This document shows, piece by piece, positions 1,988 through 50,319 of a DNA stretch of 64,000 nucleotides. The notes beneath the pieces are model-generated. The model ran no database searches. It had not been told where the DNA came from and saw nothing but the letters and a program-made list of their open reading frames with translations. Each line of letters opens with the position of its first letter. Position 1 is the first letter of the stretch. The translations under genes were made by a program, and so were the position numbers. This DNA is from Escherichia phage KIT01: the sequence record AP019521.1; one strand, written 5' to 3'.

Positions 1988-2516
1988 TACGAACCTCTTT
2001 AGCGTATTCGCGGCATTCAGCAATAAAACGATTAAGCTTCCGTTGCTGTTTTCGAATCTCTGATGTATACTCATTGGCCAAAATAATAAGCTCATCTTTA
2101 TCGTAATTTTTAATATCAGAGTAAGATGGGCGGCGGTCGACCATACCAAAATGGTCACCATTTTCTAACATCAAATAGCATACTAAATGGTAATCATCGT
2201 CGGCATTAGTAAGCTGTTTATAATCGCTTGGTTCATTTAAAGAGTATACTGAATAGCGTAGCCCAGCGAACTCCACTCGTTGAATATCCAGATTTACGTC
2301 AATAATTTCTAAAGCTTCTGCAAAAGAAAGGTCCTCAGCCAAAGCAAAGATAAAAGGTAATTTGGTAGTATGCCCACGGCTACTTGTTCGACTTAAGAAA
2401 TCATTGGAATAACCTAAGTCTTGGCGAATTCTATAAAGAACTGAATTAGTTTCATGTGAAAGACCACTATGTTTAAACCAATCAATATTTGATATCAGGT
2501 CGTCATATAAACTCAT
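1980..2516 (-). CDS. hypothetical protein
   Basis: 178-aa ORF; ggaggagagg RBS region upstream at 2521-2530; terminator-like hairpin just beyond. Confidence 0.45.
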   Translation of the reverse strand: MSLYDDLISNIDWFKHSGLSHETNSVLYRIRQDLGYSNDFLSRTSSRGHTTKLPFIFALAEDLSFAEALEIIDVNLDIQRVEFAGLRYSVYSLNEPSDYKQLTNADDDYHLVCYLMLENGDHFGMVDRRPSYSDIKNYDKDELIILANEYTSEIRKQQRKLNRFIAECREYAKEVRNV

Positions 2517-2539
2517 AATATTCTCCTCTCCTCCAAATA

Positions 2540-2557
2540 GGGAGACCGAAGTCTCCC
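2540..2557 (-). terminator. stable tetraloop hairpin (gggagac-TTCG-gtctccc on the transcribed minus strand)
   Basis: 7-bp GC-rich stem; same hairpin sequence as the gp23 terminator in opposite orientation; weak U-tract. Confidence 0.4.
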
Positions 2558-2564
2558 AGTAACA

Positions 2565-3158
2565 TTACTTAAGTGAATTAATGTAGTCGTCGATATCGGC
2601 AGAAGTCGTATCCATTCCAACTTGCGGGCCTTTAAACGTTTCTACACGCAGTAGGGTGTCTTCAATATCAATCTTAGTCAGTGCAGCGATTTCAACAACA
2701 TCATCGGCAGTAGCAATACCAAGGGCAGCCATATTACGAGTTTCACGGATATACTCGAGCTTAACGGCCAGTTCCTGACGAGAGTCATCAAGTTCCTTAA
2801 CCTTCAGTTTAATTTCATTACGCATTTCGATATAATCATCAGCTTTCTTACGAAGCTGAGTAGCTGTACGACGATAAAGGAGGCCAAGTTTAGCATGTAC
2901 CTGGACATCAGCGCCTTCGGCAATCAGTTTACGAATTTCACGTTCTTTAGAAGCAGCGAGCTGGTCCTTTTCATTAGCCAATGCACGAATACGTTTTTCT
3001 TCATTCACGGACTTAACATGAGCAGTCTGGAGTTCAGTAATTTTATCAATCAGGGTAGAAGCAGCTTTGGTGTATTGGTCTTCGATTGACAGGTTCTGAG
3101 TCATCGCGGTGCCCAGTTTAGAACGAATGAATTCAACGATTTTCTTTAAAGTGTTCAT
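2565..3158 (-). CDS. coiled-coil protein, possibly PspA/IM30-like
   Basis: 197 aa, heptad-rich Lys/Glu/Arg sequence with loose resemblance to PspA N-terminal region; early-type promoter upstream. Confidence 0.4.
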
Positions 3159-4756: not shown

Positions 4757-5311
4757 TCAATTCTTATAGAATCGGAACGGGTTTACGTGGAAGGCTAACA
4801 TAGCCTTAGGGATTTTACGAGACAAAAGACTCTTAAGTTTCCAACCGCAGTATACTCGTAGGTAAAAGGTAATCCCACCAACCTTAAGATATGGAACCGA
4901 AGCAAAGACTCCCCAGGCGTCGTCATTCCACATCCATAGCCACCCATGATGAGCTTTATCAGGAGAACCTGATTCCACATCGGGATTACCACGATAATGG
5001 AATTCTGAGCTACAATCACGGCCGAGTTTATGGTAAGCAAAGTTATAAGCTTTATTTCGCCACAACCAGGCTACTCGTTGAAGGTATATGCCTAAAGGTA
5101 GTTTTCTTATTTTAGCCCAACGTTTAATGTGACCTTTATCACCGTCAATTGGATTATCGTATGTCATCATCCAATCAAAGCCGTACGGCAATTTACCAGT
5201 CTTTTTATTGTGGAAAGGAACTACAAAAGGTGCAAGGATAACAGCCAGAACCATAGAGATAAAATCTAGTGGGACCAACAGAACCCAACTCAAATATTTT
5301 AAAAGTTTCAT
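4757..5311 (-). CDS. hypothetical protein with N-terminal hydrophobic segment
   Basis: 184 aa; late promoter TATAAATA at 5338-5345 and same upstream cassette as the IPIII-like gene. Confidence 0.45.
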   Translation of the reverse strand: MKLLKYLSWVLLVPLDFISMVLAVILAPFVVPFHNKKTGKLPYGFDWMMTYDNPIDGDKGHIKRWAKIRKLPLGIYLQRVAWLWRNKAYNFAYHKLGRDCSSEFHYRGNPDVESGSPDKAHHGWLWMWNDDAWGVFASVPYLKVGGITFYLRVYCGWKLKSLLSRKIPKAMLAFHVNPFRFYKN

Positions 5312-5337
5312 ATTATTTCCTAAGTTAGTTTACTACA

Positions 5338-5345
5338 TATTTATA
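5338..5345 (-). promoter_or_regulatory. T4-type late promoter TATAAATA
   Basis: exact TATAAATA on minus strand upstream of gene 4757..5311. Confidence 0.6.
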
Positions 5346-5352
5346 CAAAAAA

Positions 5353-5374
5353 GGCCCAACCTTTCGGAAGGGCC
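5353..5374 (-). terminator. terminator-like hairpin at the end of the tRNA/RNA transcription unit
   Basis: ggcccaacctttcggaagggcc followed on minus strand by UUUUUUG. Confidence 0.55.
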
Positions 5375-5389
5375 TTTAACCTAGGGTAA

Positions 5390-5750
5390 CCTTGTCGGGG
5401 TTCCACCTGCTAGGCAAGTGTTTGTACGAAACGCCAGGATTCGAACCCGGTTATTAAGTAGTTGACGCTACTCAATATTTTTAAAAGGCCATATCTCGAC
5501 CATATCCGAACGTTCCGTCAAAAACGCTACTCGGCTTACGGCAAAGATATTTCCTCGAATCGATAATTAGGTGCGCCGTTTCTGCTGTGATGTAAGGGGA
5601 CGTTAACAGATCGTAAAGATTTGTTAATGCCAGTCCTTACTCAGGGAACATCAGTCCGACGACTTACCGGTAGCGACCCGGTTTCTTGTTTGTTGCGCCG
5701 GTGAATGCTGGTAATCAGTCTTCATACGACGGCTTGACTATATAATAGTC
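5390..5750 (-). ncRNA. ORF-free region downstream of the tRNAs: candidate stable small RNA(s), comparable in position to T4 species 1/2 RNAs
   Basis: about 360 nt without ORF of 60 aa or more, bounded by tRNA-Arg and a terminator hairpin; contains a tRNA T-arm-like GGTTCGAATCC motif (5434-5450) without a full cloverleaf. Confidence 0.3.
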
Positions 5751-5756
5751 TTCATT

Positions 5757-5831
5757 TGGTATCCCGCCCTGGGATCGAACCAGGACCGCAAACTTAGAAG
5801 GATCGTATGCTATCCATTACACCAGCGGGAC
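5757..5831 (-). tRNA. tRNA-Arg (anticodon UCU), CCA encoded
   Basis: manual cloverleaf: 7-bp acceptor GTCCCGC/GCGGGAT, T-arm CCTGG-TTCGATC-CCAGG, anticodon loop CTTCTAA with U33 and A37; one mismatch in anticodon stem. Confidence 0.7.
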
Positions 5832-5836
5832 GTAGT

Positions 5837-5913
5837 TGGTGACCCAGACCAGATTTGAACTGGTAACCTTTCCCTTATGAGGGGACTGCTGCTAACCATT
5901 GAGCTACAGGGCC
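5837..5913 (-). tRNA. tRNA with CAU anticodon (Ile-lysidine type or Met), CCA encoded
   Basis: manual fold: acceptor GGCCCTG/CTGGGTC (one mismatch), U8, D-arm GCTCAATGGTTAGC, anticodon loop CTCATAA, T-arm ACCAG-TTCAAAT-CTGGT. Confidence 0.6.
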
Positions 5914-5918
5914 TTAAA

Positions 5919-6185
5919 TCAAACTACAAATCCAGCAGGAGCATTATCATCTTTAGCCATGTGCTGAATTGTATGATAAGTCATTTCTTCAGGAGCAACC
6001 AGATAAGCCGCAGCGTTAACTAGTGGAATTATTTTTGGTTTAGCGAATGTGCTATCGGCAATTGCCATAAAGGGCTCGCCATCAGTCTCAACTTCGCCAA
6101 ATTGACATTCATATGAAATAGAACAACGTTTGGTAGTTGTTGTCTTGGTTTCTGGGTCGTAAAAAGCTAATTTTAATACTAACAT
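5919..6185 (-). CDS. hypothetical protein
   Basis: track ORF 5919..6191 begins at GTG; ATG at 6185 with GAGGT RBS preferred. Confidence 0.35.
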   Translation of the reverse strand: MLVLKLAFYDPETKTTTTKRCSISYECQFGEVETDGEPFMAIADSTFAKPKIIPLVNAAAYLVAPEEMTYHTIQHMAKDDNAPAGFVV

Positions 6186-6359: not shown

Positions 6360-6650
6360 TCATTGTGGCCACATATTAATGTAATCAAGTTTAATAGAAG
6401 CAATCTTCAAAGGATTTTTAAAGATGTCGTATTCGATCAATCCGTTTTCAGTTGCGGTGTAGAAAGTAAAGTTAACAGAATTATAACGGCGACCATTAAC
6501 TTTTAGTTTAACGTCGCTTGAACTACGACCAATATTAACCTGTTGGACATCAAGCACAGCACCTTTGCCAAAGTTGCGAATCAGTAGCTCTGCTGCAACC
6601 TGGTCTGAATTATAGCCATTCTCTGGATTAGTAACCTTAACGTATAGCAT
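6360..6650 (-). CDS. hypothetical protein
   Basis: 96-aa ORF, start abuts stop of upstream gene. Confidence 0.4.
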   Translation of the reverse strand: MLYVKVTNPENGYNSDQVAAELLIRNFGKGAVLDVQQVNIGRSSSDVKLKVNGRRYNSVNFTFYTATENGLIEYDIFKNPLKIASIKLDYINMWPQ

Positions 6651-7058
6651 TTAACCCTCGTCTACAATAGTATGGGTATTAGCATTAACAATCTGCCACC
6701 AGTCACAGTCAAAACGATTAGAACCGTAACGAGGCTTTTTCTCATTTTCGTTAATAATATCACGTAGTTCGTCTTCAGAAAATGCTTTAGCGATTAAATC
6801 GGTATAGCCGCCACGTGGATAATAGTTATCACCTGCGAACAGAAGGAAATTTACTTTACCAGAAGGAACATATGCTTCCTTAGAGTACTTGTTTCCTGCA
6901 TGGTCTACCACTTCAATATAACGATAAGGGATATCGGTACTTTCAACCCATTGCCAAGCTGCAGCAGGGGATTCAAAAGCATCTACACCTAAACGGTTAT
7001 CTTCATCTTTAGACGGATTATTTTCATAATCCGCATATACATAATATTCAACGTTCAT
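6651..7058 (-). CDS. hypothetical protein
   Basis: 135-aa ORF in tightly packed operon. Confidence 0.45.
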   Translation of the reverse strand: MNVEYYVYADYENNPSKDEDNRLGVDAFESPAAAWQWVESTDIPYRYIEVVDHAGNKYSKEAYVPSGKVNFLLFAGDNYYPRGGYTDLIAKAFSEDELRDIINENEKKPRYGSNRFDCDWWQIVNANTHTIVDEG

Positions 7059-39800: not shown

Positions 39801-41360
39801 ATGAAAAAGAATGCATTAGTTCAAAAATGGTCCGCTCTGCTGGAAAACGAAGCCCTTCCTGAAATCGTGGGTGCTTCTAAACAAGCTATCATCGCTAAAA
39901 TTTTCGAAAACCAGGAGCAAGACATCCTGACTGCTCCGGAATACCGTGATGAAAAAATCTCTGAAGCATTTGGTTCTTTCCTGACCGAAGCTGAAATCGG
40001 TGGTGACCACGGTTATGATGCTACCAATATCGCAGCTGGCCAGACTTCTGGTGCTGTAACTCAGATTGGGCCGGCAGTAATGGGTATGGTTCGTCGTGCT
40101 ATTCCTCATCTGATTGCTTTTGATATTTGTGGTGTTCAGCCTCTGAATAACCCTACCGGCCAGGTATTTGCCCTTCGTGCAGTTTATGGTAAAGACCCTA
40201 TCGCTGCTGGCGCTAAAGAAGCTTTCCATCCGATGTATTCTCCGGACTCTATGTTCTCTGGTCAGGGTGCTGCTGAATCTTTCGAAGCACTGGCTGCAAG
40301 CAAAGTTCTGGAAGTTGGTAAAATTTATTCTCACTTCTTCGAAGCTACCGGTGCTGCACACTTCCAGGCTGTTGAAGCCGTAACCGTTGATGCTGCTGCT
40401 ACTGATGCCGCTAAACTGGATGTTGCTGTTACCGCTTTGATTGAAGCTGGTAAGTTGGCTGAATTGGCTGAAGGTATGGCTACTTCTATCGCTGAACTTC
40501 AGGAAGGCTTTAACGGTTCTACCGATAACCCGTGGAACGAAATGGGCTTCCGCATCGACAAACAAGTTATCGAAGCTAAATCCCGTCAGCTGAAAGCAAG
40601 CTACTCTATCGAACTGGCACAGGACCTTCGTGCAGTACACGGTATGGATGCAGATGCTGAACTGTCCGGTATCCTTGCTACCGAAATTATGCTCGAAATC
40701 AACCGTGAAGTTATCGATTGGATTAACTACTCTGCACAGGTTGGTAAATCTGGCCAGACTCAGACCGTTGGTTCTAAAGCTGGTGTGTTTGACTTCCAGG
40801 ACCCGATTGATATCCGTGGTGCTCGTTGGGCCGGTGAGAGCTTTAAAGCCCTTCTGTTCCAGATTGATAAAGAAGCAGCCGAAATCGCTCGTCAGACCGG
40901 TCGTGGTGCTGGTAACTTCATCATCGCTTCCCGTAACGTAGTTAACGTACTGGCTGCAGTTGATACTTCTGTAAGTTATGCAGCTCAAGGTCTGGGTCAA
41001 GGTTTCAACGTTGACACAACCAAAGCAGTATTTGCCGGTGTTCTTGGTGGTAAATATCGCGTTTACATCGACCAGTATGCACGTTCCGATTACTTCACCA
41101 TCGGTTATAAAGGCGCTAACGAAATGGACGCAGGTATCTACTACGCTCCGTACGTTGCACTGACCCCGCTGCGTGGTTCCGATCCGAAGAACTTCCAACC
41201 GGTAATGGGCTTCAAAACTCGTTACGGTATCGGTATCAACCCGTTCGCTGACCCGTCTGCACAGGCTCCTACCAAACGTATTCAGAGCGGTATGCCTGAC
41301 ATCGTTAACAGCCTTGGTCTGAATGGTTACTTCCGTCGCGTATATGTTAAAGGTATCTAA
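39801..41360 (+). CDS. 23: gp23 major capsid protein
   Basis: 519 aa; long stretches identical to recalled T4 gp23 (e.g. SKQAIIAKIFENQE, YAPYVALTPLRGSDPKNFQPVMGFKTRYGIGINPF, FRRVYVKGI). Confidence 0.98.
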   Translation: MKKNALVQKWSALLENEALPEIVGASKQAIIAKIFENQEQDILTAPEYRDEKISEAFGSFLTEAEIGGDHGYDATNIAAGQTSGAVTQIGPAVMGMVRRAIPHLIAFDICGVQPLNNPTGQVFALRAVYGKDPIAAGAKEAFHPMYSPDSMFSGQGAAESFEALAASKVLEVGKIYSHFFEATGAAHFQAVEAVTVDAAATDAAKLDVAVTALIEAGKLAELAEGMATSIAELQEGFNGSTDNPWNEMGFRIDKQVIEAKSRQLKASYSIELAQDLRAVHGMDADAELSGILATEIMLEINREVIDWINYSAQVGKSGQTQTVGSKAGVFDFQDPIDIRGARWAGESFKALLFQIDKEAAEIARQTGRGAGNFIIASRNVVNVLAAVDTSVSYAAQGLGQGFNVDTTKAVFAGVLGGKYRVYIDQYARSDYFTIGYKGANEMDAGIYYAPYVALTPLRGSDPKNFQPVMGFKTRYGIGINPFADPSAQAPTKRIQSGMPDIVNSLGLNGYFRRVYVKGI

Positions 41361-41409: not shown

Positions 41410-41676
41410 CTATGCAATCTTAACTCGGCGGTTGATGATATCACGGAAGTCAATACGATTTTCTTGGATTTTCAGCCAGTTACCAGATTTGTCTTTGGTA
41501 TGGGTAGAGTATTCACCGTTCCACCAGAAGTCAGTTTCATAAGCCAGAGCTTCGTATTTCTTAACCAATGCATTAACTGCATTACCGTTAGGATTGGTAC
41601 CGAATTTTTCTACCAGAGCTTTGATGTCTTTGTCAAGGTTAGAAAGCGTGGTACGGATAAAGTTTAATTTGTTCAT
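41410..41676 (-). CDS. hypothetical protein between genes 23 and 24
   Basis: ORF 41410..41691 trimmed to ATG at 41676 behind GAGGAG; early-type promoter upstream. Confidence 0.45.
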   Translation of the reverse strand: MNKLNFIRTTLSNLDKDIKALVEKFGTNPNGNAVNALVKKYEALAYETDFWWNGEYSTHTKDKSGNWLKIQENRIDFRDIINRRVKIA

Positions 41677-41715
41677 TTTTAATCTCCTCATGTTTTGATA
41701 GGTCTATAGTAACAC

Positions 41716-41745: not shown

Positions 41746-41751
41746 AATAAA

Positions 41752-41759
41752 ATTATATT
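41752..41759 (+). promoter_or_regulatory. late promoter TATAAATA upstream of gp24
   Basis: exact octamer. Confidence 0.65.
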
Positions 41760-41778
41760 CTCAATAAGGAAAATAGCA

Positions 41779-43059
41779 ATGGCTAAAATTAACGACCTTT
41801 TAAAAGAGTCGACCATTACTTCGAGTTCTTCGATTGGTCGTCCAAATTTAGTAGCTTTAACCAGAGCTACGACCAAACTTGTTTATACCGACCTTGTAGC
41901 TCAGCAGCGTACTAACCAACCTTTGGCTGCTCTATATGGTATCAAATATCTTACAGAAAAAGACGAATTATCTTTCCAGACGGGTGCTACTTATTCCGGC
42001 GCAGTATCCGCTAAAGACCGTGCCACTATCCCAGTTTTCACTGCAGGCGCTGTTTATGCTAAAGATGATTTGTTCCAATTTGAAAACGTAGTTTATAAAG
42101 CTTTGGTAGCAAGCCCATTTGCCGGTGCTACTGGTGATGAATACGAACAACTTCAAGAAGCTATTGTTAAGTTGACTATCCGTATTATGTCCGAAGCCGC
42201 ACTGACTGAGCGTTTTGAAGGTCCTCAAGAAGTAGATATCTCTGAAGCCAGATTCATCGTTAATAAATGGAACGCCCCGGTTAAATCACGTAAGTTGAAG
42301 AGTACTGTTACCGTAGAACTGGCTCAAGACCTCGAAGCAAATGGTTTCGATGCCCCTAATTTCTTGGAAGACCTCCTGGCTACTGAAATGGCTGATGAAA
42401 TCAACAAAGATATTCTTCAGTCCCTGGTTACGGTTTCCAAGCGTTATAAAGTTGAAGGTTTGTGTGATGATGGCTTAATTGACCTGAGTTATGCTAACTC
42501 ACCGGAAGCTTCTCGCAAGCTTTATGAATTGGTGTGTGAAATGGTTTCTCATATCCAGCGCGCAACCTCTTATACGGCAACTTATGTAGTAGCGAGTACT
42601 CGTGTAGCTGCTGTTCTGGCTGGTTCCGGATGGTTGAGACATACCCCACAGAACGACAAATATCTTTCTGCAAGTGCATACGGATTCCTGGAAAATGGTT
42701 TGCCTCTGTATTGTGATACCAACACGCCGATTGATTATGTTACTGTAGGTGTTAAAGAGGAATTTGGTGGGAAGGAAGCGGTAGGTTCTCTGTTCTATGC
42801 ACCGTATACCGAAGGCCTTGATTTGGCTGACCCTGAACATGTGGGTACATTTAAAGTGGTCGTTGACCCTGAAAGCCTGCAACCATCTATTGCATTAATG
42901 GTTCGTTATGCACTGGCTGCCAACCCTTATACGGTTACTGCTGATGATAAACAAGCCCGTATTATTGATGCGACTAATATGGATTTGATGGCGGGACGTT
43001 CTGATATGTCCGTATTGCTTGGTGTGAAACTTCCTAAAGTTTTGACTGAATTAAACTAA
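41779..43059 (+). CDS. 24: gp24 head vertex protein
   Basis: 426 aa (T4 427); gp23-like fold motifs; late promoter 41752-41759. Confidence 0.95.
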   Translation: MAKINDLLKESTITSSSSIGRPNLVALTRATTKLVYTDLVAQQRTNQPLAALYGIKYLTEKDELSFQTGATYSGAVSAKDRATIPVFTAGAVYAKDDLFQFENVVYKALVASPFAGATGDEYEQLQEAIVKLTIRIMSEAALTERFEGPQEVDISEARFIVNKWNAPVKSRKLKSTVTVELAQDLEANGFDAPNFLEDLLATEMADEINKDILQSLVTVSKRYKVEGLCDDGLIDLSYANSPEASRKLYELVCEMVSHIQRATSYTATYVVASTRVAAVLAGSGWLRHTPQNDKYLSASAYGFLENGLPLYCDTNTPIDYVTVGVKEEFGGKEAVGSLFYAPYTEGLDLADPEHVGTFKVVVDPESLQPSIALMVRYALAANPYTVTADDKQARIIDATNMDLMAGRSDMSVLLGVKLPKVLTELN

Positions 43060-43060
43060 C

Positions 43061-43087
43061 AAAAAAGGGACCTTACGGTCCCTTTAT
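43061..43087. terminator. bidirectional terminator between convergent gp24 and rnlB
   Basis: aaaaaa-gggacc-TTAC-ggtccc-ttt, A-tract and T-tract on either side. Confidence 0.7.
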
Positions 43088-43090
43088 CAT

Positions 43091-44098
43091 TTATTTGGAT
43101 ACTAATTCAATCCATACGGCTCGTAAGGTATCTTTTACGCACTCAACAAGCTGCTTTTTAACTTCAACAGGATTTTCTGCGTCGGTTAATTCTAATTCTT
43201 CACGGGCAGCTTCTTCAAGGATATCCTGGACTGTCAAGCCCATTACCTTTCCAAAATCCTTCGGCGATACTTCACCAATCTTACTGATGACATTGTTAAT
43301 GCGGTTAACAGTCACATAATCAGTGAATTGCCACATCAAATCCATATCATCTTGGGATAAAACCACTGCAACTTTAATAGGCTTATCAGACTTTTTCTTC
43401 TCGCTGAATTTAGAGTTCTTACATTTAATCGCTACACGATTTCCATTAGGAAGCCAGGTAGGAACATCAGGTTTCAGTACAAAGCCTTCAGCCGTGAATA
43501 CTTTACCTTCTACCTTAGGAATAAAGTCTGTCGAGTTTGCAATAGTTAAGCCAGCGTTATCCACTGCAAAATTATAATCGGGAACAACCGAATCAAAATC
43601 ATTAGGAAGTTTAATAAGGTCTTCAAAGCTACCAGTGGCCAGACATGGAGCTACCTTAAACTTATGAATAATACAGAAGGCTTCCATCAATGTATCGGTT
43701 AGAACAGATTCAGTACCGTCTTCCTTAGTAACTCGGATATCAAACACATAAAAGTCTTTATCACCGTAGTCCACATTCTTCTGAATACCTGTCCCAGCGA
43801 ATTCGCCATAAATCTGGTACGACTGGTAATTAATCGATTCAATTAGTTGTTGAACGGATTTAATAGAATCAGCATAGTTCTTAAGTACAATTTCATAACC
43901 ATAGAAATCTTCAGCAGGGAGAATTGGGCCAGTGCGCTTGGCGCATGTGACTGCGTCACGTTCTATGATTAAACTAAAGTTGGTTCCATGAATCTTCTCA
44001 CGTGCTACCCATTCACCGCCAGTCAAACCATTAGTACGGAGTTTTTCGATAAACTTATTGTTGTAGTGGTTTTCGAGACTGCTATATTTCTTGAACAT
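43091..44098 (-). CDS. rnlB: RNA ligase 2
   Basis: 335 aa; [54 protein letters not shown] nearly identical to recalled T4 Rnl2. Confidence 0.95.
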
Positions 44099-44185
44099 AA
44101 ATCACCATAATAAATATAATTAAATAGAAGAGCTAGTAATCTTCTGTCACCAAGCCAAATGGTTTAACGGAAGGACCTAGACCCA

Positions 44186-44213
44186 TTATAACACATCTAA
44201 ATTTAAAGCATAT
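44186..44213 (-). promoter_or_regulatory. middle-type promoter candidate (MotA-box-like TGCTTTA plus extended -10 TGTTATAAT) upstream of rnlB
   Basis: minus strand aaTGCTTTA-N13-TATAAT, about 90 nt before rnlB ATG. Confidence 0.4.
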
Positions 44214-44434
44214 TACTTTGAACTAGAACGCGCTTTGCGCCGAACCTTGTTGTTCAATCTTTTACGATAAACAACCTTTTCTTTCGATTTAAACTTGGCC
44301 TTGGCTTGTTCCACATCAACCCATGCTTTGGCCATGTCCTTAGCGGTACCACCTAATTTTTTAGCAATTTCTATAAAATTCAGTCCAGATTCGTGTAAAA
44401 AATGTACTTTAACCTTATCCATAACAATTCTCAT
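44213..44434 (-). CDS. small basic protein, possible helix-turn-helix
   Basis: 73 aa; GLNFIEIAKKLGGTAKDMAKAW then Lys/Arg-rich tail; early-type promoter upstream; no clear RBS. Confidence 0.35.
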   Translation of the reverse strand: MRIVMDKVKVHFLHESGLNFIEIAKKLGGTAKDMAKAWVDVEQAKAKFKSKEKVVYRKRLNNKVRRKARSSSK

Positions 44435-44491
44435 ATTAAGTGCGTAAATCTATACTACCATGAGAATTTTAACTTGTAAACAGGAAATTTT

Positions 44492-46054
44492 ATGGCACAA
44501 ACTACCGGTGAAAAAGAAGGCGTATTTTACGGTTATTCTCTTTATGATTTGAATAAAGAAAAACTAATAACCTTTGACGAATTACTTACAGGTATTAAAG
44601 GCGACGCTGGGGAAAATGGTGATATCGGTCCTCAAGGTCCTATTGGTTTACCTGGCCCGCAAGGTATCCAAGGTGAAGTTGGGCCTAAAGGTCCTAAAGG
44701 CGATATCGGTCTTCAGGGTATAGCAGGGCCTGCTGGTCCTCAAGGTCCACAAGGTGAACGAGGAATACAGGGCTTAACAGGACCACAAGGCCAAATAGGT
44801 ATTGCAGGGCCACAAGGCGTCAAAGGTGATACCGGTCCTCAAGGTCCTGTCGGCCCACAAGGTCCAGCAGGTGTACAAGGCGTACAAGGCGTCAAAGGTG
44901 ATACAGGTCCAGCAGGCCCTGCAGGTTTAACTTGGAAAGGAACTTGGGACTCAGCTACGGAGTATTCAATAAATGAAGCCGTAGGATATGGAGGTTCTTT
45001 GTATTTTGCTACAGAAACCGTGCCTGTCGGCGAAATCCCATCTTTAGCCTCCGACTATTGGGAAGTTTTGGCTACCGAAGGTCCAGAAGGTCCTCAAGGA
45101 CCACAAGGCATTCAGGGACCTATGGGTCCTCAGGGTATTCAAGGTCCTTTGGGTCCTGTAGGCCCGCAAGGTATCCAAGGACCAAGAGGCTTACAAGGAC
45201 CTGAAGGCGAAATAGGACCTCGTGGTTTGCAGGGGTTAAAAGGTGAAACAGGTGCTCAAGGACCGCAGGGCATTCAAGGGCTTAAAGGCGAGCCAGGGGC
45301 CCAGGGACCTGATGGTATTGGTTTAACTGGGCCTCAAGGACCAATTGGCCTTACAGGTCCAGCGGGCCCTCAGGGTATAAGAGGAGCCATAGGACCTAAA
45401 GGTGATACAGGTTTAACTGGTGCCCAAGGCGAGCAAGGTGCCCCAGGTGTTAAAGGTGATACCGGTCCTCAAGGATTACAAGGGGTTAAGGGAGATAAAG
45501 GGGATAAAGGAGATACTGGTGCCCAAGGATTACAAGGGGTTAAAGGAGATAAAGGAGACAAAGGAGATACCGCGCCTCATAATAAAGTATACTATTTAGG
45601 ACAAACCCCATGGTTCCACAACTCGTATGCTAAACATCAACTTCCAGGAACCAATGATTGGCGGATTACTGTAACAGGTACAACCAACTTTGAATCCTAT
45701 TCATCAGGTAACGTTAGAATAGGATTTTTTAATAATACTTCTGCATCCAGATCATGCACGTTTACATTGATTTCTTATGATGCTAACGGCTCACAGAAAA
45801 ATACAAAATACAATACTGTGCATAATGTTATGGTTCAAAGTTCTTATTATAAATTCTGGGGTGATAATGCCGATTCATTTATTATAGGCGGCACTTCTAA
45901 TATATGTGAAGGGTTTTTTACTGATAATGCCACCAATAAAACCTATCATATAAAATTTATAGGATTGGTCAAAGCCACAGCTACGGTACCAGGCAAATAT
46001 GTTCTTGAAGTTGAAGAGATTATTTCTGGTGGCGAACCTGTAAAATATTATTAA
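44492..46054 (+). CDS. collagen-like (Gly-X-Y repeat) protein with C-terminal globular domain
   Basis: 520 aa; two collagenous segments, each about 40 G-X-Y triplets ([13 protein letters not shown]..., [13 protein letters not shown]...), separated by a non-collagenous segment; about 160-aa Gly-free C-terminal domain. Confidence 0.85.
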
Positions 46055-46064
46055 TGGAGGTTGA

Positions 46065-46928
46065 ATGGAACCGGTACAAGCTATATTAGAGCCTGGCGTA
46101 ATAGATGTAGAATATGGTAATACTTATTCAGCAACAGTAACTCTAACTCCTATAGAAAATATCCCAGATGGTTCCGTGATAAGATATGATTGGGTTGTTA
46201 ATAACAAGTTTGTTGGTACGGGTGAAGCTACTCGTACCACCCAACCATCTCAGACCGGAAATTATGTGTTATCATGTAGAGTATTCATTACCCCGCCTAA
46301 TGAAAATACTGTAATGATAACAACTAATAAATCATATGGGTATGTATATAAAAATTCTGATACAAGTCCAGTAGATGCAGAAATATTATACGATAATAAA
46401 ATATACCAAATAGGGAGCAAAGTTAGATTATTAGCTACGGCTAATAACCCCGATACTAACTATGTTAAAGGTATTATATGGAAGGATGCTGACGGGAATA
46501 TAATAGGTATAGGGCGGGAATATATCCATACAATGCAATCTGAATATGATATAGTTCGTGCTAAAGTCACAATGGATTCGCCTACTAGAGATGAATTCAG
46601 TAAGAACTTTACCATACATTTATATGCTATAAATGTTCAAGAAGGAACTTGTATAAGATACATTCATCCTTTAGACCATCGGGATGCTGGATTTATCTGG
46701 TGCGGATGGTGGGTTATGGATGAAGTTCAACGAGCAGTAAAACTTGGATTGGATTGGAAAAATCCTGAAGGAACTGAGTTAAATTATAAATGTGATTTAG
46801 AAACACTGTCATTATTGCTCAAAACATATCCTGAAGCTGAAGTTCAGGAATCAAGGCACGGGCATATAATAACCAGACCGCAAATTGAGTCCGGTGAAAT
46901 ATATGAAAAGCCATATGAAGTAAAATAA
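46065..46928 (+). CDS. Hoc-like protein (paralog): Ig-like N-terminal region plus Hoc-type capsid-binding C-terminal domain
   Basis: 287 aa; C-terminus YIHPL..FIWCGWWVMDEVQ..DWK..YPEAEVQESRHGHII matches Hoc C-terminus YVHPL..YIWCGWWVMDEIQ..DWK..YPEVDVQESRNGYIV in the same window. Confidence 0.8.
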   Translation: MEPVQAILEPGVIDVEYGNTYSATVTLTPIENIPDGSVIRYDWVVNNKFVGTGEATRTTQPSQTGNYVLSCRVFITPPNENTVMITTNKSYGYVYKNSDTSPVDAEILYDNKIYQIGSKVRLLATANNPDTNYVKGIIWKDADGNIIGIGREYIHTMQSEYDIVRAKVTMDSPTRDEFSKNFTIHLYAINVQEGTCIRYIHPLDHRDAGFIWCGWWVMDEVQRAVKLGLDWKNPEGTELNYKCDLETLSLLLKTYPEAEVQESRHGHIITRPQIESGEIYEKPYEVK

Positions 46929-46954
46929 AAAAGGGACCTTACGGTCCCTTTTAT
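46926..46954. terminator. bidirectional terminator between convergent Hoc-like gene and hoc (identical hairpin to 43061-43087)
   Basis: aaaaaa-gggacc-TTAC-ggtccc-tttt. Confidence 0.7.
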
Positions 46955-48085
46955 TTATGGATAGAAATAAATTATTCCTGCCTCCAATGAGGTTTTGTGT
47001 ACGATATATCCATTACGAGATTCTTGTACATCAACCTCTGGATAGTCGGTAATCATTTTTTGAAGTGTATATCGGTGCAAATAATACGGGCTATCCGGGT
47101 CATCGGTTTTCCAGTCTTTGCCTTCAAGAGTCATTTTCTGGATTTCATCCATAACCCACCATCCACACCAGATATAAGCTGAATTGCGAACTGGCAATGG
47201 ATGTACATAAGGTAATTCACCATCTGGAACTGGTGCGACTTTAGCCGTGACTGTCACATTACCGGTTTTGGTAACGGTCGCAGGGTTATAATCAGTCGCC
47301 GAAACCACAACAGAAACTTCAATAACCTGTGAACCTTCAGTGTTTGTATCGATTGCTAGAGTATCTGTGGTACCAGCAATACCAATGCCATCTTTCTTCC
47401 AAGAATAAGCAAAAGTGGCACCACTAGGCGCACCTGCTACGGTAGCTTTAAAAGAAGCCGGAGTTCCTTCAGGTACATTAATAGAGGCTGGCGTTAAATT
47501 AACAGAAACCCCAGACATTGTTTTCTTAACAAAAGAAACCGTTATGCCTTTAGCAGCAGTTGCTGAACCGTATTCCGGAGAGGTAACAGTAACTTCACAA
47601 TTCAAGGTATAATTTGCTTCGGCTGCTTCAGTTAGTGTAATAGTTTTAGAGGTTTGGCCTGAAATTACGGTGGTATTTCGTTTCCAAACATAATTAATTG
47701 TTGCATCAGCAGGAGCACCGGTTACATTAGCCGTAACAACTTGGGATTGGCCGACTTCTTTAGAAACGGAAGTAGGGTCCAAAGCCAAAGAGATATCCAT
47801 AGTTTTATTAGATACGGTAACTTCAAAGGTGTCTTCGGCTGTCTCAAGAGGGCCCGCATCGCCAGGGTCAGAAGTTACTACTACTTTTATAACTTTCTTA
47901 CCCGCAGGAGCAGCACCCGTATATCTCAAAACATTAGTGGTTTCTGGGTTAGCAGCTCCATCAACGGTCCATACATATGCAATGGTTCCCCCTGTTACAA
48001 CTGGGTCGGTTGCGGTAGCAGTGTAATTAGCGCTTTCGCCTATTTTCATAGACGCTGCGCCGGCTATACTTACAGTAAAGGCCAT
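46955..48085 (-). CDS. hoc: Hoc highly immunogenic outer capsid protein
   Basis: 376 aa (T4 376); Ig-like repeats; C-terminal GNVTVTAKVAP..GELPYVHPLP..IWCGWWVMDEIQKMT.EGKDWKTDDPDS matches recalled T4 Hoc. Confidence 0.95.
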   Translation of the reverse strand: MAFTVSIAGAASMKIGESANYTATATDPVVTGGTIAYVWTVDGAANPETTNVLRYTGAAPAGKKVIKVVVTSDPGDAGPLETAEDTFEVTVSNKTMDISLALDPTSVSKEVGQSQVVTANVTGAPADATINYVWKRNTTVISGQTSKTITLTEAAEANYTLNCEVTVTSPEYGSATAAKGITVSFVKKTMSGVSVNLTPASINVPEGTPASFKATVAGAPSGATFAYSWKKDGIGIAGTTDTLAIDTNTEGSQVIEVSVVVSATDYNPATVTKTGNVTVTAKVAPVPDGELPYVHPLPVRNSAYIWCGWWVMDEIQKMTLEGKDWKTDDPDSPYYLHRYTLQKMITDYPEVDVQESRNGYIVHKTSLEAGIIYFYP

Positions 48086-48094
48086 AGTTTACCC

Positions 48095-48772
48095 TTATTT
48101 TAAAGTGACAAAAGATGAATTACGCGTTTCACGTACTAATACTGAGCCATTACGATTGATGTAATAAATCAGACTGAATAATGTTTGGTGGGCTGAAGGA
48201 TGTTGGAAATCTTTAGGACGTTCTTTCCAATCAGGGGTTTCAGAAATCCATTGATAAATCCACCAAGGAACAGTACAGTAACCTGGGTTTTTACCAATAA
48301 GCAAAAGATTGGGACTAAAGTTTTCAGGGAGTTCAAATTTAGGTTTTTCTGATTCTTTAACCAAGGTTATAGCTTGATTGAATTTCTCTTCGACAAACGG
48401 GACATCCTCTTCAATAATCTCTACCTTAGGAAGTTCGGCTACCTCAACGACTTCAACAACTGCCTCAGGAGCATCGAACAACAGGGTGGCTTCTTCTTTA
48501 GCCGGTTCAGCACCATCAACAAATTCGTTAGCACCATTGAGTTCGTCGGCAGCATCAATCAAATCAGAAATAGACAAACCTTCGGTTTCCGGAAGTGGTT
48601 CGTCAGCCAAGGCTTTAAGACCTTCAGTGATATTGATAATCAAATTATCAACCGAACGGGTTTTCTTAAGTTTTAAACCGAACTGTTCACCGTATTCGAT
48701 TAACTTAGCTTTAGCTTCTTTTTTATCTTCGAGTGCACGAAGCTCTTCAATATATTGATGGTCCATAATCAT
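48095..48772 (-). CDS. inh: Inh-like protein (inhibitor of prohead protease), by position and size
   Basis: 225 aa (T4 Inh 226); immediately upstream of hoc on the same strand; minus-strand late promoter at 48801-48808. Confidence 0.55.
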   Translation of the reverse strand: MIMDHQYIEELRALEDKKEAKAKLIEYGEQFGLKLKKTRSVDNLIINITEGLKALADEPLPETEGLSISDLIDAADELNGANEFVDGAEPAKEEATLLFDAPEAVVEVVEVAELPKVEIIEEDVPFVEEKFNQAITLVKESEKPKFELPENFSPNLLLIGKNPGYCTVPWWIYQWISETPDWKERPKDFQHPSAHQTLFSLIYYINRNGSVLVRETRNSSFVTLK

Positions 48773-48786
48773 TCTCTTTTCTAGTG

Positions 48787-48808
48787 TATAAATATAACTA
48801 TATTTATA
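48787..48808. promoter_or_regulatory. divergent late promoters (plus 48787-48794 for uvsW; minus 48801-48808 for inh/hoc)
   Basis: two exact TATAAATA octamers back to back. Confidence 0.6.
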
Positions 48809-48822
48809 ACTGAGAATTACTT

Positions 48823-50319
48823 ATGCAAATTCAAGTACATTTTGATAATTTTAGTCATGTTCGTGTTGAATGCGATGAATCTACATTCTACGAACTCAGA
48901 GACTATTTTAGCTTTGAAGCTGATGGATATAAATTCAACCCTAAATTTCGTTATGGGCAATGGGATGGACGTATTCGTCTTCTAGATTATAACCGTAAAC
49001 TGCCTTATGGACTCGTCCCTCAAATTAAAAAGTTCGCTGAACAATTTGAATACTCTCTGTGGATTGACCCACGTATTCTTGAACAGGAAGATATTTCTCG
49101 TGAAGATTTTGACTCATGGGTGGCTTCTCAAGAAATTTATTCAGGGTCTACCAAGATTGAGCCGCATTGGTATCAGAATGAAGCCGTATACAACGGCCTG
49201 ACAAAACGTCGCGCAATTCTGAATTTACCTACATCCGCAGGTAAATCATTAATCCAGGCACTCCTGAGTCGATATTACGTTGAGAACTATGAAGGTAAAA
49301 TCCTCATCTTAGTTCCTACTACTGCACTTGTCGACCAGATGATTAATGACTTCATCGATTATCGTTTGTTCCCTAAAGCCGCAATGCTTGGTATTCGTTC
49401 AGGTACCGCTCGTGATTCTGATGCAATGATTTACGTTTCGACTTATCAAACTGCTATTAAGCAACCTAAAGAATGGTTTGCTCAGTTTGGTATGTTTATG
49501 AACGACGAATGCCACTTGGCTACAGGTAAATCTATTTCTACCATCATCGAAGGCCTAACCAACTGTATGTTTAAATTCGGTTTGTCTGGTTCTTTAAAAG
49601 ATGGTAAAGCTAATTTAATGCAATATATGGGTTTGTTTGGTGATGTGTTTAAGCCAGTATCCACCTCCCAGTTAATGGAAGAAGGACAGGTTACAGACCT
49701 TAAAATCAACAGTATTTTCCTTCGATACCCGGACGAATTCACCGTTAAAATGAAAGGTAAAGATTACCAATCAGAAATTAAAGTCATTACTAAGGCTACT
49801 CGTCGTAATAAATGGGTTGCTAATTTAGCTGTTAAACTCGCTAAGAAAGAAGAGAACGTATTCCTGATGTTTAAAAACATTGAACACGGTAAAACTCTTT
49901 TTGAAATGGTTAAAGAGCAACATAAAGAAGTTTATTACGTATCAGGTGAAGTTAATACCGAAACGCGTAATGCTCTGAAAGTAATGGCGGAAAATGGTAA
50001 GGGTATTATTGTTGTGGCAAGTTATGGTGTGTTCTCTACTGGTATTTCCGTTAAGAACCTTCACCACGTTGTATTTGCCCATCCAGTAAAATCTAAAATC
50101 ATTGTACTCCAGACAATTGGTCGTGTACTCCGTAAACATGCCTCTAAATCAACAGCACAGGTGTGGGATATCATCGACGACATGGGTGTTAAGCCTAAAT
50201 CAGCTACGGCTAAAAAGAAATATGTTCATTTGAACTACGCCCTCAAACACGCTTTAGAACGTATTCAACGTTATGCTGATGAGAAATTTAATTACGTAAT
50301 GAAACAGGTGGATTTATGA
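48823..50319 (+). CDS. uvsW: UvsW helicase
   Basis: 498 aa; DECH box FMNDECHLATGKS, helicase motifs LPTSAGKS and QTIGRVLR. Confidence 0.9.
   Translation: MQIQVHFDNFSHVRVECDESTFYELRDYFSFEADGYKFNPKFRYGQWDGRIRLLDYNRKLPYGLVPQIKKFAEQFEYSLWIDPRILEQEDISREDFDSWVASQEIYSGSTKIEPHWYQNEAVYNGLTKRRAILNLPTSAGKSLIQALLSRYYVENYEGKILILVPTTALVDQMINDFIDYRLFPKAAMLGIRSGTARDSDAMIYVSTYQTAIKQPKEWFAQFGMFMNDECHLATGKSISTIIEGLTNCMFKFGLSGSLKDGKANLMQYMGLFGDVFKPVSTSQLMEEGQVTDLKINSIFLRYPDEFTVKMKGKDYQSEIKVITKATRRNKWVANLAVKLAKKEENVFLMFKNIEHGKTLFEMVKEQHKEVYYVSGEVNTETRNALKVMAENGKGIIVVASYGVFSTGISVKNLHHVVFAHPVKSKIIVLQTIGRVLRKHASKSTAQVWDIIDDMGVKPKSATAKKKYVHLNYALKHALERIQRYADEKFNYVMKQVDL

Follow-up and report, generated by a model that had tools for sequence, protein, structure and literature searches.

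Hoc is a model phage-display platform and the basis of the idea of phage adherence to mucus; its natural function is debated. SPP1 gp12 is small, and its collagen motif is short. The protein, a collagen-like trimer, decorates the phage capsid at the centres of hexamers, where it is dispensable and has no known function (PMC5292684, PMC7602432). The EPclB/EPclC proteins and lambda Stf are built from an N-domain, a collagen (Col) segment, a small non-collagen repeat, a second Col segment and a C-terminal trimerising/binding domain, and experiments have shown that the collagen-like side tail fibre proteins of enterohaemorrhagic Escherichia coli (EHEC) prophages form stable trimers with a collagen helix (PMC3368898). 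Here, we analyse a 64,000-nt stretch of Escherichia phage KIT01 (AP019521.1), hereafter the window, to which all coordinates refer unless another phage is named. Within an otherwise T4-like gene block, the window carries a plus-strand pair of open reading frames (ORFs): ORF1, a collagen-stalk fibre gene, and ORF2 (hoc2), a paralogue of hoc. An earlier note, made from the sequence, had drawn attention to this pair; both ORFs are real, and we confirm the observation with corrections. We are highly confident of the identity of the cassette parts, which are as follows.

44492-46054, plus strand: ORF1, collagen-stalk fibre gene, 520 aa, member of PHROG 5073.
44492-44596, plus strand: N-terminal motif domain, 35 aa, class I, putative attachment end (from homologue comparison).
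44591-44932, plus strand: collagen segment 1, 38 uninterrupted Gly-X-Y triplets, ~33 nm (by triplet count).
44927-45085, plus strand: CBM5/12-like knuckle domain, aa 146-198, separating the collagen segments (from profile matches).
45080-45571, plus strand: collagen segment 2, 27 + 27 triplets, ~46 nm, with a single G-I-G interruption at aa 277-279.
45572-46051, plus strand: C-terminal knob, aa 361-520, a rare "type C" predicted beta-sandwich.
46056-46060, plus strand: GGAGG Shine-Dalgarno of hoc2, in the 10-nt gap between the ORFs (from sequence reading).
46065-46928, plus strand: ORF2 (hoc2), Hoc paralogue, 287 aa, class I, starting 10 nt past the ORF1 stop codon.
46065-46646, plus strand: two putative immunoglobulin (Ig)-like domains of Hoc2, D1 (~aa 1-97) and D2 (~aa 98-194) (from the class I alignment).
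46647-46925, plus strand: Hoc2 capsid-binding domain (IWCGWWVMDE ... QESRHG), by homology to canonical Hoc.

The cassette is neither unique nor newly seen. It has already been deposited and annotated in about two dozen Straboviridae from two subfamilies; the KIT01 copy adds a rare knob and a new mosaic to this known cassette. The earlier note knew of no collagen-like protein described at this locus in T4-type phages. Public annotations contradict this: VR7 ORF196/197 are labelled "collagen triple helix repeat" and "similar to T4 Hoc", the JS10 pair "tail fiber-like" and "hoc", and that of phage 65 "similar to collagen-like proteins" and "hoc-2, second copy of the hoc gene". In the literature, we found no paper that discusses the fibre and Hoc2 as a pair.

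ORF2 is, on homology, a genuine Hoc paralogue, belonging to the Hoc family by its defining capsid-binding domain. It matches T4 Hoc in the Protein Data Bank (PDB; 5vf3_Z) at E=2.5e-24 by phmmer, with aa 30-283 aligned to 121-376 and the match reaching the C-terminus, and PHROG 1149 ("Hoc-like head decoration") at E=1e-54 over aa 5-280. An alignment of its last 93 aa with the window's canonical Hoc shows 45% identity over 85 aa (E=2e-24). The claim of a second Hoc with a conserved capsid-binding domain therefore stands. W17, W21, V22, D24, W36 and the E-S-R-x-G motif of this domain are invariant in 11 Hoc and Hoc2 sequences. Upstream of it, aa 30-190 align with Ig domains 2-3 of T4 Hoc; no Pfam Ig family scored above threshold. 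ORF2 and T4 Hoc (5VF3 chain Z, 8T1X) share a C-terminal capsid-binding domain, the hoc/inh neighbourhood and, putatively, a tandem Ig-like architecture. ORF2 differs in that its predicted Ig-like domains number two, against three in T4 Hoc. It is also encoded on the opposite strand, follows a fibre gene in the relatives examined, and falls into one of two distinct Hoc2 classes. Its closest match is to Hoc2 of VR25/26 (93% identity).

ORF1 encodes a modular collagen-repeat protein. Matches to the Pfam Collagen family (PF01391, E=4e-43) and to PHROG 5073 (E=7e-118) identify it as a member of the latter phage fibre family. We counted 92 Gly-X-Y triplets (aa 34-147, 38 triplets; aa 197-277, 27; aa 280-360, 27), with Pro at X in 38% of them and, at Y, Gln in 37% and Lys in 16%; the longest run among 2000 composition-preserving shuffles of ORF1 was nine triplets. 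Both collagen segments had been described as about 40 uninterrupted triplets. This holds for the first, an unbroken run of 38, whereas the second has 54 triplets with one G-I-G break. Computed with the standard collagen rise of 0.286 nm per residue, the 276 helical residues give a stalk of ~79 nm. By analogy with the experiments on EPclA/B (PMC3368898), the protein would be expected to trimerise.

The segment between the two collagen stretches, previously described just as non-collagenous, itself looks like a CBM5/12-type domain. A profile of 10 homologous knuckles matches the chitin-binding domain of chitinase A1 (1ED7) at E=4.9e-4. Pfam CBM_5_12 (PF02839) is matched by all 10 members, below or near threshold (best E=2.9e-6); for the window knuckle itself, the match has an E of 0.03 and 14.8 bits, below the gathering score of 26.2.

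The N-terminal motif of ORF1 follows the class I pattern G..G.(F/Y).G..L.(D/E)....K.(I/L).F..(I/L)L. Identity is 97% with the motif of VR26/VR7, 56% with that of Kosakonia 305, and 55-60% with those of the Vequintavirinae proteins CR3 gp11 and A5-4_226; over aa 1-326, identity with the VR26 homologue is 76%. No second copy of the motif occurs among the other proteins of the window. The Col-knuckle-Col-knob layout is shared with EPcl/Stf. ORF1 differs in its CBM5/12-like knuckle and in its position at the head locus of a T4-like phage, and Pfam searches with the full-length protein and with its non-collagen domains one by one (E<=10) found no PfN (PF08400), Pf2 (PF03406) or PfC (PF06820). Because these three are absent, ORF1 is not a member of the lambda Stf/EPcl family. 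SPP1 gp12 is the nearest functional precedent for a collagen-like protein on a capsid, and the likeness to it is a functional analogy taken from the literature; here, by contrast, the stalk is long and its gene is coupled to that of a Hoc paralogue.

The C-terminal knob sets the KIT01 copy apart. None of the related cassettes matches it, at either the DNA or the protein level, and the knob has no sequence match in Pfam, PHROG or PDB. An exhaustive HMMER scan of 1.84 billion representatives returned two true homologues, P0001 (40%) and P0002 (32%); four further matches were rejected as repeat-protein artefacts. P0001 is a Vequintavirinae-type fibre with the window's knob type. P0002 (352 aa) carries the same knob type behind a quite different N-terminal region of ~110 aa and a single collagen segment. 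A word-indexed protein search gave no knob match with either the single sequence or a three-sequence profile including P0001 and P0002, and negatives of this kind do not amount to absence.

The knob had been called Gly-free. It contains 14 Gly in 160 aa and merely lacks triplet periodicity. The earlier note also asked whether it might be a C1q/TNF-like domain. An AlphaFold2 model from the single sequence had a predicted local distance difference test (pLDDT) score of 35, and we used instead a model from the three-sequence alignment (pLDDT 77, predicted template modelling score 0.76). This model is all-beta and predicts a beta-sandwich for the knob rather than a C1q/TNF fold. In a Foldseek search against BFVD, it matches the C-termini of other phage collagen-like fibres, that of JS10 included.

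The pairing of a fibre gene with a Hoc paralogue is conserved across relatives. We defined the cassette as a fibre gene with the motif G..G.(F/Y).G..L..(I/L).F..(I/L)L followed by a same-strand Hoc paralogue; the window has the motif and, after 10 nt, the paralogue. A fibre gene directly precedes a same-strand Hoc paralogue in 11/11 annotated phages examined, which are listed here with locus names where we refer to them.

VR26: gp244/gp243 (the same names in VR25).
VR7: ORF196/197.
JS10: 0176/0177.
CGG4-1: gp212/gp211.
Kosakonia 305: gp246/gp245.
CLB_P2, Pantoea Phynn and ABTNLsp5: annotated pairs.
Aeromonas phage 65: p147/hoc-2, 4-nt overlap, next to tk.
Erwinia Cronus: gp244/gp243, directly after g24.
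GomatiRiver_11: 4-nt overlap.

The same arrangement is found by coordinates in five more phages (VR25, VR5, ESCO10, AS4 and AhFM11). The annotated pairs span Dhakavirus, Gaprivervirus, Kanagawavirus, Gelderlandvirus, Roskildevirus, Ishigurovirus and unclassified Straboviridae. Counting all relatives in which the pair was found (~24 Straboviridae), the insertion first noticed in the window is common. Gaps between fibre gene and hoc2 range from -11 to +29 nt, with 127 nt in VR7. The pair stays together in four neighbourhoods: the 24.3/hoc locus, after g24 (Cronus), by tk (phage 65) and by NAMPT (Phynn). Co-direction, tight spacing or overlap, and movement as a unit lend comparative support to the proposal that the two genes form one decoration/fibre module.

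There are two classes of fibre N-domain, a 35-aa form and a ~80-aa form with GHDGRG, and each goes with one Hoc2 class; the 35-aa class I motif recurs, by alignment, in the initial ~35 aa of class II. Knob types, by contrast, are shuffled across the N-domain classes. Class I Hoc2 Ig parts, the window's type, occur in 11 records representing six phages (VR25, VR26, VR7, VR5, ESCO10 and Kosakonia 305), and class II Hoc2, defined from JS10, in 24 records representing ~18 phages. Between enterobacterial and Aeromonas phages, class II Hoc2 proteins keep the distal Ig domain D1 as well as they keep the capsid-binding domain, with identities of 41% and 39.5%; for D2 the figure is 26%. Cronus Hoc2 consists of D1 and the capsid-binding domain alone.

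Stalk length ranges from no triplets (Phynn gene 37) to 92 (the window), while N-domain, knob and Hoc2 pairing persist. In Phynn gene 37 (239 aa; Phynn stretch 2283-3002), the N-domain is joined straight to the knob and the gene overlaps its hoc2 by 11 nt. That a gene without collagen still overlaps hoc2 suggests that the stalk is a variable spacer. The Kosakonia 305 genome encodes a single Hoc, the plus-strand Hoc2 (stretch 4934-6147); no remnant of a capsid-binding domain is present in the ~360 bp ahead of inh, the expected place of canonical hoc. This suggests that the Hoc2 type can serve as a capsid Hoc. The paper on the Kosakonia phage contains no proteomics.

The window agrees with the database cassettes in the order, strand and tight spacing of the two genes and in what they encode: the N-terminal motif, a collagen stalk containing a CBM-like knuckle, and a Hoc paralogue. 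It is unlike them in combining an IME08-like backbone with a VR26-like cassette, and in a knob that those phages lack. The flanks resemble IME08, with identities of 92% on the left, as far as 44497, and 95% on the right, starting at 46921. The interior resembles VR26, with 74% identity over 44489-45483 and 84.5% over 46056-47210, and the knob-coding 3' end of ORF1 (45484-46055) has no DNA match. By these alignments, the window is a mosaic of IME08-like backbone, VR26-like cassette and rare knob, in agreement with the view that the cassette was acquired or exchanged. The mosaic breaks at two features:

44452-44497, no strand: left-hand boundary block TTTTAACTTGTAAACAGGAr..ATG, conserved in the window, VR26, JS10 and IME08; the breakpoint lies inside it, at 44489-44497.
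46924-46952, no strand: bidirectional terminator hairpin common to hoc2 (plus) and hoc (minus); the cassette's right-hand boundary and breakpoint.

JS98 has no cassette. IME08 retains Hoc2, but of its adjacent fibre gene only a 5' remnant is left, which encodes MPDNPLYGHDGRG...; this phage has a fibre-like gene after g24 instead. At ~2892-2965 of the IME08 stretch, a short leader ORF starts at the conserved ATG, which is the fibre start in the window, and encodes MPDNPLYGHDGRGVSLELTSESTF. This is a fragment of a class II fibre N-domain, and we therefore read it as a deletion scar. VR26 (stretch ~2423-2485), and likewise VR7, has a short leader ORF (MPDILERKDLLYNRHYLNKY) from the conserved ATG, upstream of a AATAAATA motif.

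The terminator hairpin has a second copy, 27/28 identical, at 43058-43085 between g24 and rnlB. The two 28-nt copies (AAAAAAGGGACCTTACGGTCCCTTT; 43058-43085 and 46924-46951) are in direct orientation, 3866 bp apart, and bracket rnlB, 24.3, the fibre gene and hoc2. This repeat may mediate relocation of the cassette; the IME08 fibre-like gene adjoins the first copy.

We found no late promoter upstream of the cassette, as the earlier note had stated: TATAAATA is absent from the plus strand over 41749-48787, and NATAAATA from the 150 nt upstream of ORF1. Motifs of the form NATAAATA lie 30-41 nt upstream of the cassette in VR7, VR26 and Kosakonia 305 only. A plus-strand TATAAATA-like motif beside the rnlB start was rejected as a cassette-specific late promoter, as the same sequence is present in cassette-less JS98. 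The window has a weak sigma-70-like site, TTCTCA-17-TATACT, at 44428-44456; such sites are not enriched (20 observed versus 15.2 +/- 4 expected from shuffles).

The conserved upstream block was also rejected as a cassette promoter. Read on the minus strand (44480-44452), it contains a sigma-70/T4-early-like TTTACA-17-TAGTAT, preceded by TG, upstream of gene 24.3, and the block doubles as the recombination breakpoint. GTTTAC is the T4 early -35 consensus. The ribosome-binding site of the fibre gene overlaps the upstream region of this minus-strand 24.3 promoter-like site.

The genes around the cassette are those of a T4-like block:

39801-41360: g23.
41779-43059: g24.
43091-44098, minus strand: rnlB.
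44213-44434, minus strand: DUF2774/24.3 gene.
46955-48085, minus strand, convergent to hoc2: canonical hoc, 376 aa, resident copy, IME08-like.
48095-48772, minus strand: inh.
48823-50319, plus strand: uvsW.

A 93-aa minus-strand ORF (41410-41691) lies between g23 and g24. Between inh and uvsW, there is an exact divergent pair of TATAAATA late-promoter motifs, at 48787-48794 (plus) and 48801-48808 (minus).

Homologues of ORF1 also occur outside the Straboviridae. The Vequintavirinae proteins CR3 gp11 and A5-4_226 resemble it in their N-terminal motif, their collagen-knuckle-collagen layout and their interchangeable knob types. Unlike the window, these phages have no adjacent Hoc paralogue, and the gene belongs to the head-neck block, with the major capsid protein gene on one side and the neck/sheath genes on the other. 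Searches with hidden Markov models of Hoc2 D1, full Hoc2 and the capsid-binding domain found no Hoc-like ORF around the fibre genes (~18 kb in CR3, ~11.5 kb in A5-4), and hhalign against CR3 gp12 gave a probability of 0.3%. The products of neighbouring genes in this block are virion proteins of phage CB7 by tandem mass spectrometry (MS/MS; PMC7344957). In CR3, the gene for gp7 (stretch 6387-7001) follows that of the major capsid protein and precedes that of gp8, a large protein containing collagen. The C-terminus of gp7 weakly matches the T4 Inh family (phrog_1051, E=6e-6), echoing the T-even inh-hoc neighbourhood.

We propose that the "fibre + Hoc paralogue" pair is an accessory cassette of two genes that moves among Straboviridae. 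The fibre would be a homotrimer of ~80-90 nm, running from the N-terminal motif through a 38-triplet helix, the CBM5/12-like knuckle and a 54-triplet helix to a variable beta-sandwich knob. Because its capsid-binding domain is intact, Hoc2 would sit at gp23 hexamer centres, sharing or competing for sites with resident Hoc. Once incorporated into the virion, the two proteins would form a joint capsid-displayed adhesin, with Hoc2 as the capsid anchor. The N-terminal motif of the fibre would dock on the conserved distal Ig domain of Hoc2 or on the adjacent capsid surface, and the exchangeable knob, perhaps together with the CBM-like knuckle, may bind a variable glycan/surface ligand of the host or habitat. 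That Hoc2 anchors or co-displays the collagen fibre on the capsid is a tentative reading, to which we give slightly less than even probability. We favour a joint, capsid-located function because N-domain and Hoc2 classes match, D1 is conserved, the Phynn fibre has no stalk, and Kosakonia 305 has Hoc2 as its sole Hoc. Hoc2 also keeps the capsid-binding domain, the gene pair holds together across neighbourhoods, and SPP1 gp12 offers a precedent for a collagen-like trimer on hexamer centres (PMC5292684, PMC7602432).

Several points weigh against a Hoc2-anchored fibre. The Vequintavirinae proteins CR3 gp11, A5-4_226 and P0001 carry the class I motif at 55-60% identity, and no Hoc-like ORF was found in the ~18 kb (CR3) and ~11.5 kb (A5-4) of DNA around the gene. 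The N-domains of VR7 and VR26 are identical and their Hoc2 Ig parts 32% identical, which speaks against tight co-evolution. IME08 keeps Hoc2 beside a mere 5' remnant of the fibre gene, the docking of a trimer on monomeric Hoc would be a symmetry mismatch, and the window has no late promoter upstream of the cassette. A search for fusions of collagen and the Hoc capsid-binding domain gave only 19 short fragments and is uninformative rather than negative.

The two proteins might instead be independent. Hoc2 would then be an alternative head decoration, and the collagen protein a side, neck or tail fibre attached via its N-terminal motif and aiding adsorption like the lambda Stf/EHEC side tail fibres, the two travelling together as accessory adhesins in a hyperplastic region. 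We regard this as unlikely. In its favour, annotation places PHROG 5073 and related families among the tail fibres, the Col-small domain-Col-C-terminal layout parallels EPclB/EPclC (PMC3368898), the N-terminal motif occurs in Vequintavirinae with no Hoc nearby, IME08 has Hoc2 with no adjacent fibre gene, and knob swapping is typical of receptor-binding proteins. The "tail fiber" labels, however, are transferred annotation rather than experiment. The earlier note had allowed that ORF1 might prove an ordinary tail fibre gene common at this locus; the gene is indeed common and auto-annotated "tail fiber protein", but nothing shows it to be a tail fibre. The Stf/EPcl-defining PfN, Pf2 and PfC are missing, and the Vequintavirinae homologue lies in a head-neck block, not in the tail-fibre cluster. 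Co-location alone also fails to explain the kept gene order, the ATGA overlaps and the joint move to four contexts.

A different arrangement on the head seems improbable to us: the fibre would attach to the capsid by itself, at quasi-threefold sites or hexamer centres (compare SPP1 gp12 and phi29 gp8.5), and Hoc2 would merely co-decorate. Trimeric collagen-like or coiled-coil head fibres are known to bind capsids directly (PMC7602432, PMC5292684), the N-terminal motif is constant while the Hoc2 Ig domains diverge, and the Vequintavirinae homologue is placed in a head module. Yet T-even phages and Vequintavirinae differ greatly in their major capsid proteins while the motif is 55-60% conserved between them, and direct binding leaves the Hoc paralogue downstream of each fibre gene unexplained. 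There is a similarly slim chance that the fibre is not in the virion at all, being made early, secreted or released at lysis, or encoded by a decaying passenger gene. This would fit a window with no late promoter and just a weak sigma-70-like site of a kind not enriched over shuffles. Against it stand an intact 520-codon frame with 92 perfect triplets, intact homologues in ~24 phages, and a Cronus pair that comes straight after head genes 23 and 24 in the same orientation. The NATAAATA motifs upstream of the VR7/VR26 and Kosakonia 305 cassettes, and the MS/MS detection of the Vequintavirinae block neighbours in CB7 virions (PMC7344957), point the same way.

Should the fibre turn out to sit on the tail or neck, the many database labels would be correct and the finding would be routine. 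There is also a broader reading, which we consider less likely than not. The Hoc paralogue would be a dedicated adaptor that plants trimeric adhesin fibres, collagen-stalked or, as in Phynn, stalk-less, on the heads of some T4-like phages. Such a system would be modular, with a capsid anchor, a docking domain (Hoc2 D1 and the fibre N-terminal motif) and exchangeable knobs, its docking motif would be re-used by the Vequintavirinae on a different anchor, and it would be a head-fibre system new for Straboviridae. A Hoc paralogue travelling with a swappable-knob fibre suggests that some T4-like phages mount adhesin fibres at the Hoc site. If true, this would give the diversification of Hoc a testable function, provide T-even virions with a second host- or habitat-binding organelle, and offer a natural scaffold for trimeric ligand display on T4 capsids.

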